Assembly: GCF_024700885.2 (NCBI RefSeq)
Contig: NZ_CP117016.1
Source of the DNA: Escherichia coli
GTDB lineage: Bacteria; Pseudomonadota; Gammaproteobacteria; Enterobacterales; Enterobacteriaceae
DNA length: 64,000 nt
Reading direction: 5' to 3' (one strand)
Shown: one piece after another, positions 3,039 to 18,063 of the stretch
Position numbering within the stretch: the first letter of the stretch is position 1
Layout: each line of letters begins with the position of its first letter
Translations under genes and position numbers: made by a program
The notes under the pieces: generated by a model
What the model saw: the letters and a program-made list of their open reading frames with translations, nothing else
Databases searched by the model: none
What the model was told of the DNA's origin: nothing

Positions 3039-4496
3039 TTACATCAGCGGCATTGCTAACCGCACAATGCTAATCAGCGGTTGTGGCCATACACCCAGCA
3101 CCAGTACCAACAGTGCAGAGATCAGCACCACGATACCGCCCGCGCTGTACTGCCAGTTTGATGGTGCATCGCGACCCGGTTGTTCCGGGGCGTGAAGATA
3201 CAAGCTCACAGCCACGCGCAGGTAGTAGTAGAGGCCGATTGCCGAACCGACAACCACGGCACCCACCAGCCACCACAAGTGTGCCTGGACACCGACCGCC
3301 AGCACGTAGAACTTACCAATAAAGCCCAGCGTCATCGGAATACCGGCCAGAGACAGCATCATCACCGTCATCACCGCCGCGAGGATCGGACGATGCCAGA
3401 ACAGTCCGCGGTAAGAGAACAGGGAATCAGCATCCGGGCCACGATACGGGCTGGACATCAGGCTGACCACGCCGAACGCGCCGAGGCTGCTGAACAGATA
3501 ACCGGCCAGGTAAACCCCTACCGCTTCCATCGACATCTCGCCGGTTTGCAGCGCAATCAGCGCCACCAGCAGATAGCCGAGGTGAGAGATAGATGAGTAA
3601 CCAAGCAGACGTTTGATATTGGTCTGGCTCAGCGCCATCAGGTTACCGAAGATGATAGAGGCAAAGGCGATAATCGCCAGCACCACGCGAATCGCTTCAC
3701 TGTCACCCACCGGAGCGTAAAGGAACAGACGCATCACCACGCCGAAGATAGCGATTTTGCTCGCCGTCGCCAGGAAAGTGGAAACCGGCGCAGGCGCGCC
3801 CTGGTATACGTCTGGCGTCCACAGGTGGAACGGCACCAGAGAGAGTTTGAAGCCAAGGCCAACAATCATCAGGCCGAAACCTGCCAGCAACAGCGGCTCG
3901 TTGAGCATACCGTCGCCGAGGTTTTTACCCAGCGCGACAAACGACAGGTCGCCAGACTGCGCATACACCAGCGCCATACCGAACAGCAGGAAAGAAGACG
4001 CTGCGGCAGAAAGGATAGTGTATTTGATACTGGCTTCCAGCGAACGTTTCTGGCGGAAAGCGTAACCGACCAGGCCAAACAGCGGCAAAGAGATCAGTTC
4101 AATACCGAGGAACAGAGACGCCAGATGGTTGGCATTCGCCAGCAGGATCCCGCCCAGCGCGGCAATTAACACCAACAGGTAGAACTCGTCCTTGTTGTCG
4201 TTATAGCCTTCAAGCCACGGGTAGGCGAAAGTACAGGTGGCGAGGCTCGCCAACAATACCAGCCCGGTGTAAAGCATGGCGAAACCATCAACGCGCATCA
4301 GCGGCGTAACGTCCATAGCGCCCGCCTGGCCGACAAACCAGAGCGAAACCAGCGCCGCGTTAAGCCCAATAACCGAGAGCGTAGCGTTGAGGAAATGATT
4401 GCGTCGCCACGCAATGGAGAGCATCACAACCACCACCGTCAAGCCGACGATCAGCAACGGTAGCAGTGCGATCAGGTTTTGTGGAGTTATTGTCAT
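3039..4496 (-). CDS. nuoN: NADH-quinone oxidoreductase subunit N
   Basis: 485-aa polytopic membrane ORF; last gene of the nuo operon; matches NuoN. Confidence 0.95.
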
Positions 4497-4502
4497 GGCG
4501 AT

Positions 4503-6032
4503 TTACGGCCTTGTAGTAGTAACGGAATTAACAAACCACTGCTGGATATTGCCAATCGCGGAGTGCGAGGTATCCAGAATCGGCTGCGGATAGAAGCCCA
4601 GCAGTACCAGCAGCACCACCAGCAACAGGATCATAAACAGCTCACGCAGCGACATCCCTGGCAGTTCCTGGCTGGCAATCTGGCTTTTCGCTTTACCGAA
4701 GTAAGCGCGATGCAACATCGCCAGCGAATAAACAGATGCAAAGACCAGCCCAAAGGTAGAGATAACGGTAATCACCGGGACAACCTGGAAGCTGCCGAAC
4801 AGAATCATAAATTCGCCGACGAAGTTACCGGTGCCTGGCATCCCAAGCGTTGCCACCGCAAAGAACAGCGACAGTGCTGGCAGCCATTTCATCTTGCTCC
4901 ACAGACCGCCCATCATGCGCATGTCGCGGGTATGGATACGTTCATAAAGCTGACCGCAGAGAATAAACAGACCCGCCGCCGACAAGCCGTGCGCAATCAT
5001 CTGGATTACCGCGCCCTGGTAGGCCAACTGGCTGCCGGTATAGATAGCAATCAGCACGAAGCCCATGTGGGAAACCGAGGTGTAGGCGATCAGACGTTTG
5101 ATATCGGTCTGGGCGAAGGCCATCCACGCACCGTAGAAGATGCCGATAACACCCAGCCACATAGCGATTGGCGCGAACTCTGCCGACGCGTTCGGGAATA
5201 GCGGCAGGGAGAAACGCAGCAAACCGTAAGCGGCAGTTTTCAGCAAGATCCCCGCGAGGTCAACGGAACCGGCGGTCGGAGCCTGTGAGTGCGCATCCGG
5301 CAGCCAGCCATGCAGCGGAACCACCGGCATTTTCACCGCAAACGCGATGAAGAAGCCCAGCATCAACAGATATTCCACACCACTGGACATTGGCGTATTC
5401 AACAGCTCTTCATAGTTGAAGGTCCAGACGCCGGTCGCATTGTAGTGAACAAAAACCAGCGCCAGGATGGCGATCAACATCACCAGACCACTCGCCTGGG
5501 TGTAAATGAAGAACTTGGTTGCCGCCGTGATACGCGTTTTACCGTCAGAGGCTTTATGCCCCCACAGTGCGATCAGGAAGTACATCGGCACCAGCATCAT
5601 TTCCCAGAAGAAGAAGAACAGGAACATGTCGATGGCAAGGAACACGCCGATAACGCCGCCCAGGATCCACATCAGGTTGAGGTGGAAGAAGCCCTGATAT
5701 TTTTCGATCTCTTTCCACGAACAGAGTACCGCCAGCACACCGAGCAGACCGGTCAGCACGACCATCAGCAGCGATAGCCCGTCAATGGCGAGATGGATAG
5801 AGATACCAAAACGCGGGATCCACGGCATGTCGAATTCAGACTGCCACTGCGGAATTCCGGCGGATTGCGTCAGTGAATAACCGCCCTGCAACCACAGTTG
5901 CAGCGACAGCGCCAGCGTCAATCCCATGGTGATCAGCGCGATCCAGCGCGGCACCTTGACGCCAAAGCGTTCGGTCTGCCAGCACAGGAAGCCGCCGATA
6001 AAGGGAATTAATATTAGCCAGGGTAGTAACAT
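4503..6032 (-). CDS. nuoM: NADH-quinone oxidoreductase subunit M
   Basis: 509-aa antiporter-like membrane ORF. Confidence 0.95.
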   Translation of the reverse strand: MLLPWLILIPFIGGFLCWQTERFGVKVPRWIALITMGLTLALSLQLWLQGGYSLTQSAGIPQWQSEFDMPWIPRFGISIHLAIDGLSLLMVVLTGLLGVLAVLCSWKEIEKYQGFFHLNLMWILGGVIGVFLAIDMFLFFFFWEMMLVPMYFLIALWGHKASDGKTRITAATKFFIYTQASGLVMLIAILALVFVHYNATGVWTFNYEELLNTPMSSGVEYLLMLGFFIAFAVKMPVVPLHGWLPDAHSQAPTAGSVDLAGILLKTAAYGLLRFSLPLFPNASAEFAPIAMWLGVIGIFYGAWMAFAQTDIKRLIAYTSVSHMGFVLIAIYTGSQLAYQGAVIQMIAHGLSAAGLFILCGQLYERIHTRDMRMMGGLWSKMKWLPALSLFFAVATLGMPGTGNFVGEFMILFGSFQVVPVITVISTFGLVFASVYSLAMLHRAYFGKAKSQIASQELPGMSLRELFMILLLVVLLVLLGFYPQPILDTSHSAIGNIQQWFVNSVTTTRP

Positions 6033-6120
6033 GGCGATCTTTATTCCTTGTAAAAGTCCCGTCAGGACCGGATTTTCAACGAATTCTCACGACAGAAAAT
6101 TCTCTTCGGACTGGGGGTAG

Positions 6121-6158
6121 TGTCGGATGCACCGCGAATGCGGCTTATCCGACCTACG
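6121..6158. repeat. REP / palindromic unit in the nuoL-nuoM intergenic region
   Basis: gtcggatgc...gcggcttatccgacctac, the REP consensus family. Confidence 0.5.
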
Positions 6159-16836: not shown

Positions 16837-16941
16837 ATTGTTCACCATTGCAAATGGTCCGTGGTGACTGTCGGCGCAGTAAGCTTCGCGAAATAGATTT
16901 AGGAATAAGCGAAGAAAAATCCCTTTGCCGACAGGCGCAAA

Positions 16942-17604
16942 TTAAATCTCGTCAGGTGTACGCAGGTTGGTTACGGCAATGCGTTCACCGCGCTTGCGTT
17001 CGCGCTCTGATTGCATGTTGGCGCGATAAACGCCCTGATCGCCAACCACCCAGGAGAGCGGACGACGTTCTTTACCGATAGATTCCTGCAACAGCATCAG
17101 TGCCTGCATGTACGCTTCAGGACGCGGCGGGCAGCCCGGGATATACACATCAACCGGGATAAATTTATCGACGCCCTGCACAACGGAATAAATATCGTAC
17201 ATACCGCCGGAGTTGGCACAGGCCCCCATTGAGATAACCCATTTTGGTTCCAGCATCTGGTCATACAGACGCTGAATAACCGGTGCCATTTTGGTAAAGC
17301 AGGTTCCTGCAACGACCATCAGGTCAGCCTGACGCGGCGAAGCTCGCAATACTTCTGCGCCAAAACGCGCCACGTCATGCACCGCGGTAAACGAAGTCAC
17401 CATCTCAACGTAACAGCAGGAAAGACCGAAGTTATACGGCCAAATTGAGTTTTTACGACCCCAGTTAACCATGTCATTGAGCTTGCCCATAAACACGTTT
17501 TTGTTAACTTCTTGCTCCAGAGGGTCGGTTACGATCTCCTGCTTTTGCAGGGGGTAACGGTCGTTCTCACCGTTGGGATCTATGCGGGTGAGCGTATAAT
17601 CCAT
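16942..17604 (-). CDS. nuoB: NADH-quinone oxidoreductase subunit B (N2 cluster)
   Basis: 220-aa ORF with conserved CC...C...C(P) motif. Confidence 0.95.
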
Positions 17605-17619
17605 CTTAATGCCTCGCGG

Positions 17620-18063
17620 TTAGCGTTGACGATTAGCGATACTGTTCGTTTCCGGGTTCATACGCTCGCGGCGTGAACGCGCGGGCGTCCAGTCCAGCGC
17701 GCCAATACGCACCAGATAAACCAGACCTGCCAGTAACACAAAAATAAAAATTGCAGCTTCCACAAAGCCTACCCAGCCGCTTTCGCGGATAGAGGTTGAC
17801 CATGCGAACAGATACAGCGCTTCAACGTCGAAGATAACGAAGAACATGGCCACCAGATAAAACTTGGCGGACAGGCGTAAGCGGGCGGAGCCGACCGAGT
17901 CGATACCGGATTCAAACGGCACGTTTTTCGACCTCGCGCGTGCGCGACCGCCTAAAAACCAACCGCCTACCAGCATCAGGCAACACAGGCCAATGGCAAC
18001 GATAAGAAAGATAGCGAATGCCCAGTGATGAGCGATGACTTCAGTGGATGTTGACATACTCAT
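17620..18063 (-). CDS. nuoA: NADH-quinone oxidoreductase subunit A
   Basis: 147-aa membrane ORF; first gene of the operon. Confidence 0.95.

Follow-up and report, generated by a model that had tools for sequence, protein, structure and literature searches.

The segment between positions 3,039 and 18,063 of the window, the 64,000-nucleotide stretch of E. coli DNA analysed here, is a standard, intact nuoABCDEFGHIJKLMN operon of 13 genes for respiratory complex I on the minus strand. In the list of open reading frames, 13 ORFs tile this segment, whose ends coincide with the nuoN stop and the nuoA start, and their coordinates agree with those annotated in RefSeq for an E. coli genome of 100% identity (MLI114) and with those of K-12. 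The operon sequence is 100% identical to that of several sequenced E. coli strains, and the nuo region was found in 5421 of 5426 complete genomes. Each of the 13 products matches a complex I Pfam family far above threshold. From the first gene to the last, all on the minus strand, they are nuoA (17620..18063; 147 aa, Oxidored_q4, annotated in the identical genome), nuoB (16942..17604; 220 aa, Oxidored_q6, likewise annotated), the fused nuoCD (15046..16848; 600 aa from the first ATG or 596 aa from the K-12 start at 16836), nuoE (14543..15043; 166 aa, Pfam search), nuoF (13209..14546; 445 aa, Complex1_51K and NADH_4Fe-4S), nuoG (10430..13156; 908 aa, annotation and Pfam), nuoH (9456..10433; 325 aa, NADHdh, E 3e-120), nuoI (8899..9441; 180 aa, Fer4 families), nuoJ (8333..8887; 184 aa, Oxidored_q3), nuoK (8034..8336; 100 aa, Oxidored_q2), nuoL (6196..8037; 613 aa, Proton_antipo_M and Proton_antipo_N), nuoM (4503..6032; 509 aa, Proton_antipo_M) and nuoN (3039..4496; 485 aa, Pfam search). 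A sequence-only reading of this DNA had named the genes correctly, as judged from the ORFs, the Pfam matches and the RefSeq and K-12 annotations.

That reading had also described nuoC as encoding a fused C and D subunit, which is borne out by the presence of both Pfam domains in one ORF: Complex1_30kDa (PF00329) spans residues 50-178 (E 1.6e-42) and Complex1_49kDa (PF00346) residues 329-600 (E 2.5e-104). The product matches the E. coli complex I chain PDB 7p61_C over its full length with 1413 bits. Its description of the fusion as typical of Enterobacteriaceae is true as far as it goes, nuoCD being fused in 70 of 70 loci within our Enterobacterales sample of 80 loci, but is too narrow, since the fusion characterises clade E complex I, a type that occurs in many gammaproteobacteria and has reached other lineages by transfer (PMC4453560). 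A fused Aquifex chain is present in the PDB (7q5y_B). Clade E is further recognized by a NuoG some 900 aa long that bears the N7 motif CXXCXXXC-X27-C (PMC4453560), and the NuoG encoded here carries this motif at residues 228-263 of its 908 residues; the full set of nuoA-N core subunit genes is co-directional and in canonical order. The operon is thus predicted to encode the 13-subunit proton-pumping NADH:quinone oxidoreductase (NDH-1) of clade E type, and NADH:quinone oxidoreductase activity with proton pumping is to be expected from near-identity to the characterised K-12 enzyme.

Downstream of nuoN lies an intrinsic terminator (2988..3018, minus strand) of the form GCCGCCGA-loop-UCGGCGG followed by U8, with a folding energy of -26.4 kcal/mol and z = -4.4. 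It is placed in the 66 nt that separate nuoN from the convergent gene yfbM, and the hairpin is also present in K-12. Consensus scanning combined with folding gave no convincing terminator within the operon, the only strong one being that after nuoN; the consensus scan itself returned fewer promoter-like sites than shuffled sequences and only marginally more terminator-like ones, and it missed the real nuoN terminator, which makes it uninformative. A ryfA match at 2988-3143 scored 18 bits, below the gathering score of 80, and is a chance hit caused by the terminator hairpin. Two long ORFs antisense to the operon, at 6577-8022 (481 aa) and 15136-16479 (447 aa) on the plus strand, were likewise rejected. 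They lie in the codon-aligned antisense frame, which is interrupted only opposite sense TTA, CTA and TCA codons; such codons are few in the operon (58 of 4895), and the open runs, of 38-578 codons, are not kept from genus to genus, so that we regard both ORFs as artefacts.

Spacings between consecutive genes, read directly from the sequence, are +15 (A/B), +93 (B/CD; +105 from the K-12 start), +2 (CD/E), -4 (E/F), +52 (F/G), -4 (G/H), +14 (H/I), +11 (I/J), -4 (J/K), -4 (K/L), +163 (L/M) and +6 nt (M/N). The four 4-bp overlaps reported at first reading are literally ATGA. Their conservation was followed in 80 Enterobacterales loci, with denominators that differ by junction. The nuoE/nuoF overlap (14543..14546, minus strand, as are those that follow) keeps -4 in 56 of 69 loci and has a GGAG SD in 89%; nuoG/nuoH (10430..10433) is at -4 in 72 of 79 loci and at -1 in the other 7, with an AGGAGG or GGAGG SD in 96%; nuoJ/nuoK (8333..8336) is at -4 in 69 of 72 loci; and nuoK/nuoL (8034..8037) in all 72, with a weak GUGA(G) SD in 73/73. 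Three of the four overlapped starts (nuoF, nuoH and nuoK) have a strong SD. The M/N spacing is +6 in 62 of 67 loci, and nuoE, which starts 2 nt past the nuoCD stop, is without an SD in 68 of 70. The E/F overlap is not indispensable, since gaps of +2, +14 or +26 stand in its place in Morganellaceae and one Yersinia. Across the sample the overlap spacing is kept, and the length of the long gaps ranges between 18 and 295 nt. Six of the 12 nuo junctions fall at -8 to +6 nt, a range that takes in 24% of co-directional pairs in E. coli as a whole (PMC10666635; binomial P = 0.043). This excess over the genome background is mild, indeed marginal, as expected for a heteromeric complex, and conservation of spacing across genera is the stronger evidence.

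In each of the three long gaps (B/CD, F/G and L/M), which the first reading passed over, a conserved stem-loop is found immediately 5' of the ribosome-binding site that follows. The nuoF-nuoG gap is filled by the nuoG RNA motif (Rfam RF01748; 13164..13206, minus strand), which the covariance model matches over positions 1-43 of 43 with 50.3 bits (gathering score 33, E 3e-8), directly 5' of nuoG; its hairpin (13174-13192) shows compensatory changes across genera. The nuoL-nuoM gap (6033..6195, minus strand) holds a REP unit (6117-6157) within an outer stem (6181-6192/6104-6117), a conserved box GAATTCGTTGAAAATC at 6071-6086, a conserved hairpin at 6055-6069 and the nuoM SD AAGGA, and its fold has z = -3.4. 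The hairpin is kept at 6-8 bp in 13 of 13 sequences, with T-A/C-G swaps. The REP unit is an imperfect, consensus-matching palindrome that is extragenic and multicopy, the pattern occurring 4 times in the 64-kb window against 0.01 expected; the gap also gives a weak naRNA4/REP325 match. Within E. coli this REP is variable, with about 730 genomes lacking a match at megablast level and a longer gap in O157.

The third gap holds a structured nuoB-nuoCD leader (16834..16944, minus strand), delineated by a 40-genus alignment, covariation counts and a covariance model. An outer helix (16927-16934/16868-16875) and an inner helix (16909-16914/16884-16889) are followed by an anti-SD helix, in which CACCA (16862-16866) pairs with UGGUG (16843-16847) over the SD GGUGA (16842-16846); the real nuoCD ATG is probably that at 16834-16836, the K-12 start. 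The MFE fold holds all three helices. The thermodynamic z-scores (-0.7 and -1.5) are not significant; the case for the leader rests on covariation, counted on the alignment from which the structure itself came. RNAalifold on the MAFFT alignment gave only the inner and SD helices, and the outer helices were specified by hand owing to bulges. The covariance model (R1) finds one match per Enterobacteriaceae locus, with 94.6 bits in the window, and detects no leader in Yersiniaceae, Morganellaceae, Pectobacteriaceae or Hafniaceae; an analogous architecture is seen for Pectobacteriaceae in MFE folds only. A sensitive Rfam 15 scan of the leader returned chance-level matches only (E above 6, eukaryotic families), and the searchable literature, which leaves aside subscription papers such as the 1993 description of the nuo locus, holds no relevant description of the nuoB-nuoC or nuoL-nuoM elements.

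Based on these features we tentatively propose, as a possibility somewhat short of likely, that the 93-105-nt nuoB-nuoCD region is an uncatalogued, Enterobacteriaceae-specific cis-acting RNA, which might gate nuoCD translation or mark a site of mRNA processing. The proposed element consists of an 18-bp bipartite hairpin about 10 nt past the nuoB stop, followed directly by the invariant CACCA/UGGUG helix sequestering the nuoCD SD. The hairpin may draw the nuoB stop near the nuoCD start, and the leader may bind a regulator at its conserved GGA loop (16848-16861).

The operon is most likely expressed as one polycistronic message of about 15 kb that ends at the terminator after nuoN. Along this message, a ribosome finishing one gene would restart on the next at E/F, G/H, J/K and K/L, and probably at CD/E and M/N too, so that termination-reinitiation may in part keep subunit synthesis roughly equimolar. 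At nuoF, nuoH and nuoK reinitiation would be aided by SDs inside the upstream gene, and at nuoL and nuoE it would proceed with little or no SD. It cannot span the three long gaps, where the stem-loops probably serve to tune de novo initiation, to shield processed segments of the mRNA, or both. We hold this reading as a whole, an intact nuoA-N complex I operon with one message, reinitiation at ATGA overlaps and stem-loops in the gaps, with high confidence.

The weight could also be distributed differently, with the B/CD, F/G and L/M hairpins as the main regulatory layer and the overlaps secondary. RNase processing or stability boundaries, or sites for proteins or sRNAs, would then split the message into AB, CDEF, GHIJKL and MN segments that differ in half-life or translation rate. 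Conserved stem-loops in each of the three gaps that exceed 20 nt speak for such a layer, as do the pairing of the 3' helix of the B/CD leader with the nuoCD SD and the slow evolution of the intergenic DNA, which changes far more slowly than synonymous sites: the intra-operon intergenic sequence differs from K-12 at 1 position in 356 nt, against 19 predicted from the rate at third codon positions (P about 1e-7). However, the elements are dispensable, several of the genera sampled being without the nuoG hairpin, with F/G gaps of 27-32 nt, or having just 18-27 nt between nuoL and nuoM, and the B/CD model is limited to Enterobacteriaceae. We consider the hairpins unlikely to be the dominant layer.

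For reinitiation across the overlaps, we infer coupling from the geometry of the nuo junctions together with the behaviour of other E. coli gene pairs in experiments. The geometry associated with coupling is an ATGA or TGATG overlap, or a stop and start within about -8 to +10 nt on the same strand; here four junctions are at -4, a fifth at +2 and a sixth at +6, conserved across genera. The last two, CD/E with its SD-less nuoE and M/N, were not noted at first reading and also come within the published reinitiation range. E. coli -4 overlaps have shown strict coupling, which is lost beyond about 20 nt, with an enrichment among heteromeric complexes (PMC6728339, PMC10666635). The overlaps might instead be passive by-products of compaction and of the origin of start and stop codons, ATGA being the easiest overlap to make and kept only as changes would alter protein termini, with each nuo gene translated from its own SD. 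The strong SDs in 89-96% of loci, from which nuoF, nuoH and nuoK could also initiate independently, fit this explanation, and so do the loss of the E/F overlap in some genera, the rank of -4 as the commonest spacing genome-wide in E. coli (PMC10666635) and the de novo initiation of bioBF, an E. coli -4 pair, in reporter tests. We nevertheless judge it very unlikely, as the K/L spacing is invariant despite its weak GUGA SD, the SD-less nuoE start so close to the nuoCD stop is hard to explain without reinitiation, and coupling was seen for 4 of the 5 -4 pairs tested in E. coli.

The initial observation itself carries little weight: the four overlaps and the nuoCD fusion are already known and, as that reading rightly said, all of it is expected of a textbook operon, whose recognition may serve as a positive control. 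Of modest value is the cross-genus example of a 13-subunit complex in which overlap spacing is kept much tighter than the length of the intergenic gaps nearby. One lead does have some value for research, namely the presence of conserved RNA hairpins in all three long gaps, of which only the nuoG motif is catalogued; the B/CD hairpin, in no RNA-family catalogue, is mildly new. Such hairpins could explain how complex I subunits are made in equimolar amounts on either side of gaps too long for reinitiation. If the proposal for the leader is true, it would be one of three structured 'punctuation marks', the others being the nuoG motif and the nuoM hairpin, that set subunit stoichiometry at these points.

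Comparison with reference nuo operons, the check suggested at the outset, shows gene order, lengths and spacings to be the same as in K-12 (b2288-b2276; structures 7p61, 7awt, 7z7s), with the same 13 genes. Coding identity is 98.1%, and the 7 amino-acid differences are conservative, all at sites variable among genera. Downstream of nuoN, K-12 has yfbN/O/P between yfbM and nuoN, which the window lacks, like 79% of E. coli genomes. The operon does not differ from the clade E type described by Spero et al. (2015, PMC4453560), with which it has the fused NuoCD, the long NuoG and the N7 Fe-S motif in common, nor does the F/G element differ from RF01748 (Weinberg et al. 2010, PMC2864571), being a full-length match directly upstream of nuoG in an enterobacterium. 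Compared with known REP elements, the L/M gap has the GTAGGTCGGATAAG...CATCCGAC palindromic unit, one of a family with 4 copies in the window; it differs in sitting within an operon, flanked by two genes that are probably co-transcribed. The overlaps resemble TeRe coupling (Huber et al. 2019, 2023) in their ATGA sequence, in joining co-directional genes of a heteromeric complex and in having SDs inside the upstream gene, and differ in that nuoL and nuoE are without a good SD.

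The minus strand of window positions 3039-18063 (15,025 nt) is tiled over its whole length by thirteen ORFs. In the identical strain MLI114, RefSeq annotates the genes as nuoN to nuoA, with yfbM as the neighbour at one end and lrhA and alaA at the other, and genes, gene lengths and spacing are the same as in K-12. All products match the expected complex I Pfam family with scores far in excess of the gathering threshold. In coding DNA the identity to K-12 is 98.1% (279 differences in 14,685 nt), with seven amino-acid differences in all, each at a position that is variable in other genera. 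Based on these Pfam matches, the near-identity to K-12 and the confinement of substitutions to variable sites, the operon is intact and ordinary. The sequence-only reading had called its features expected, and this is borne out: the description is correct and already known, that of a textbook locus. Of 5426 complete E. coli genomes, 5421 contain the stretch at a coverage of at least 80%, and several are 100% identical over the 15,025 nt; it is single-copy and chromosomal, with one plasmid match as the sole exception. Alleles at least 99% identical to that of the window occur in 24/5424 E. coli records (others 95-99%), and divergence from K-12 is uneven by gene (nuoA 0/444 differences, nuoG 84/2727), a pattern suggestive of past recombination or mosaicism in a sparsely sampled lineage. 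The antisense ORFs 6577-8022 (+, 481 aa, opposite nuoL) and 15136-16479 (+, 447 aa, opposite nuoCD) are regarded as artefacts because of the codon-aligned frame, rare TTA/CTA/TCA codons and stop-free runs that are not conserved across genera. Outside the operon, the ORF at 67-1005 (+) corresponds, by comparison with MLI114, to the 3' portion of a gene for an ElaD/SseL-family deubiquitinase and overruns the left edge of the window.

The three long gaps B/CD, F/G and L/M between adjacent nuo genes, passed over by the sequence-only reading, each contain conserved RNA structure. Internal intergenic DNA of the operon shows 1 difference to K-12 in 356 nt, while the third-codon-position rate of 5.3% would predict about 19 (P about 1e-7). 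Only the nuoB-nuoCD leader structure and, to a lesser degree, a hairpin upstream of nuoM go beyond catalogued knowledge, and we consider the leader a modest lead, short of a discovery. An alignment of 40 leaders across Enterobacteriaceae genera supports, for the B/CD leader (16834-16944, minus strand), a bipartite hairpin of ~18 bp and, 3' of it, an invariant CACCA/UGGUG helix, which is predicted to pair with and occlude the nuoCD Shine-Dalgarno (SD) sequence. In a covariation test of the 23-pair structure, controlled by sliding the 3' partners by 1-3 columns, 91.4% of cells are in standard pairs (slid controls 30-38%) and 13 pairs carry compensatory double changes (controls 3-8), counts made on the same, phylogenetically related sequences from which the structure was derived. 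The covariation score is 0.211 compared to at most 0.069 in the controls, and 0/500 shuffles equal the observed value.

A covariance model of the leader yields exactly one match per Enterobacteriaceae locus, always in the B/CD gap (94.6 bits for the window), including two Siccibacter leaders outside the seed with a 55-nt insertion, and zero matches in the loci sampled from other Enterobacterales families. Leaders of Pectobacteriaceae, unrelated in sequence, are predicted to adopt an analogous fold made up of a long hairpin and a small one close to the SD. The MFE fold of the E. coli leader contains all three helices, with an unremarkable z-score of -1.5. No Rfam 15 family matched the leader, not even under the permissive settings of a dedicated scan, and full-text literature searches, with older subscription papers outside their reach, returned no description of the element. 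The leader is likely real as a conserved structure; what it does, and whether older papers lack a description of it, is uncertain.

The F/G gap is filled by the nuoG RNA (Rfam RF01748; 13164-13206, minus strand), a full-length match scoring 50.3 bits (gathering score 33). The motif, a candidate cis-regulatory element, was described in 2010 for Enterobacteriales including K-12 (PMC2864571). Its hairpin shows compensatory changes across related loci and is absent in several genera with 27-32-nt gaps, where the UGGAAGCAUGCU-AUG ribosome-binding region is kept. Hairpin-less genera are of Klebsiella/Raoultella/Enterobacter type and others, having either the 27-32-nt gap or a different upstream hairpin.

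The L/M gap (6033-6195, minus strand; fold z = -3.4) harbours a REP unit (6117-6157) enclosed by an outer stem, and the REP-derived naRNA4 matches below threshold. The REP pattern has 4 matches in the window compared to 0.01 expected, the others lying at 43940-43956, 53344-53360 and 62114-62130 (-). A conserved box, GAATTCGTTGAAAATC (6071-6086, minus strand), is located 3' of the REP unit and is followed by a 6-8-bp hairpin (6055-6069, minus strand) just 5' of the nuoM SD. This hairpin is found in 13/13 short-form sequences, with GGUCC/GGGAC exchanged for GGCCYC/GRGGCC; many other genera carry a repeat of about 120-170 nt within the loop, with the stem intact. About 730 E. coli genomes, e.g. 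O157:H7, have a variant of this gap. There is a striking similarity between the translation-initiation regions of the paralogous nuoM and nuoN (UACAAGGAAUAAAGAUCGCCAUG and UACAAGGCCGUAAAUCGCCAUG; 6030-6055 and 4494-4520, minus strand), and the pattern AAGG-N10-11-CGCCAUG is conserved at both across Enterobacterales, which may be a duplication relic or reflect a shared constraint.

All four 4-bp ATGA overlaps that had been named are literally present on the minus strand: E/F (14543-14546), G/H (10430-10433), J/K (8333-8336) and K/L (8034-8037), each with a spacing of -4 nt. The remaining spacings read from the sequence are +15 (A/B), +93 (B/CD), +2 (CD/E), +52 (F/G), +14 (H/I), +11 (I/J), +163 (L/M) and +6 nt (M/N). 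The -4 ATGA arrangement is the commonest spacing of co-directional E. coli gene pairs, 707/2,987 (24%) of which lie at -8 to +6 nt (PMC10666635). With 6/12 junctions in this range (binomial P = 0.043), nuo is mildly enriched, in keeping with short spacings being reportedly 4.5-fold enriched in genes of heteromeric complexes. Conservation across genera is more telling than this enrichment. Among 80 Enterobacterales loci with nuoH and 10-kb flanks, annotated by homology, the spacing is -4 in 72/72 loci for K/L, 69/72 for J/K (-1 in the remaining 3), 72/79 for G/H (-1 in 7) and 56/69 for E/F (-1 in 5; +2, +14 or +26 in Morganellaceae and one Yersinia). M/N is +6 in 62/67, H/I +14 in 63/77 and CD/E +2 in 52/69 loci. 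In contrast, the long gaps vary (F/G 27-263 nt, L/M 18-295 nt).

In E. coli pairs other than nuo, -4 overlaps lead to strict termination-reinitiation coupling in 4/5 cases, coupling collapses at a gap of ~20 nt, and an intragenic SD usually adds to coupling (PMC6728339, PMC10666635). Among the overlapped genes, nuoF, nuoH and nuoK have strong SD cores at their starts in 89%, 96% and 92% of loci and could also initiate independently. The best indirect evidence for reinitiation comes from nuoL, which has only GUGA(G) in 73/73 loci, and from nuoE, which starts 2 nt past the nuoCD stop and is without an SD in 68/70. Coupling in nuo is thus inferred, on good grounds, from other gene pairs and from geometry: ribosomes would terminate and reinitiate at the overlapped and near-abutting junctions.

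Downstream of nuoN a canonical intrinsic terminator (2988-3018, minus strand; 7-bp GC stem, then U8; -26.4 kcal/mol, z = -4.4) is kept in K-12. It is housed in the 66-nt yfbM-nuoN gap (2973-3038); K-12 differs by yfbN, yfbO and yfbP (about 2.6 kb; 1439-4048 of its locus L002) between yfbM and nuoN, while in most E. coli genomes (4310/5426) the two genes adjoin directly.

In the start region of nuoCD (16834-16848, minus strand), PGAP uses the first ATG (MVNNMTDL..., 600 aa), while the K-12 annotation begins at the second (596 aa). The PGAP start is probably four codons too long, considering the K-12 annotation, the proper distance of the universally conserved GGUGA SD from the second ATG, and the in-frame UGA closing the upstream start position in non-Enterobacteriaceae leaders of Serratia, Yersinia and Edwardsiella type. 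The single 600-aa ORF contains Complex1_30kDa (residues 50-178) and Complex1_49kDa (residues 329-600) and aligns along its entire length with the solved E. coli NuoCD chain 7p61_C (1413 bits). The reported fusion is thus present, as one ORF of 598-603 aa in 70/70 Enterobacterales loci, but "typical of Enterobacteriaceae" is too narrow. In a phylogenomic survey, fused NuoCD was almost exclusive to "clade E" complex I, found in derived gammaproteobacteria and by transfer in some alpha-, beta- and deltaproteobacteria and Bacteroidetes (PMC4453560), and a fused Aquifex chain is present in the PDB (7q5y_B). The window carries the other hallmarks of clade E as well: its NuoG is 908 aa long, and the N7 motif spans residues 228-263.
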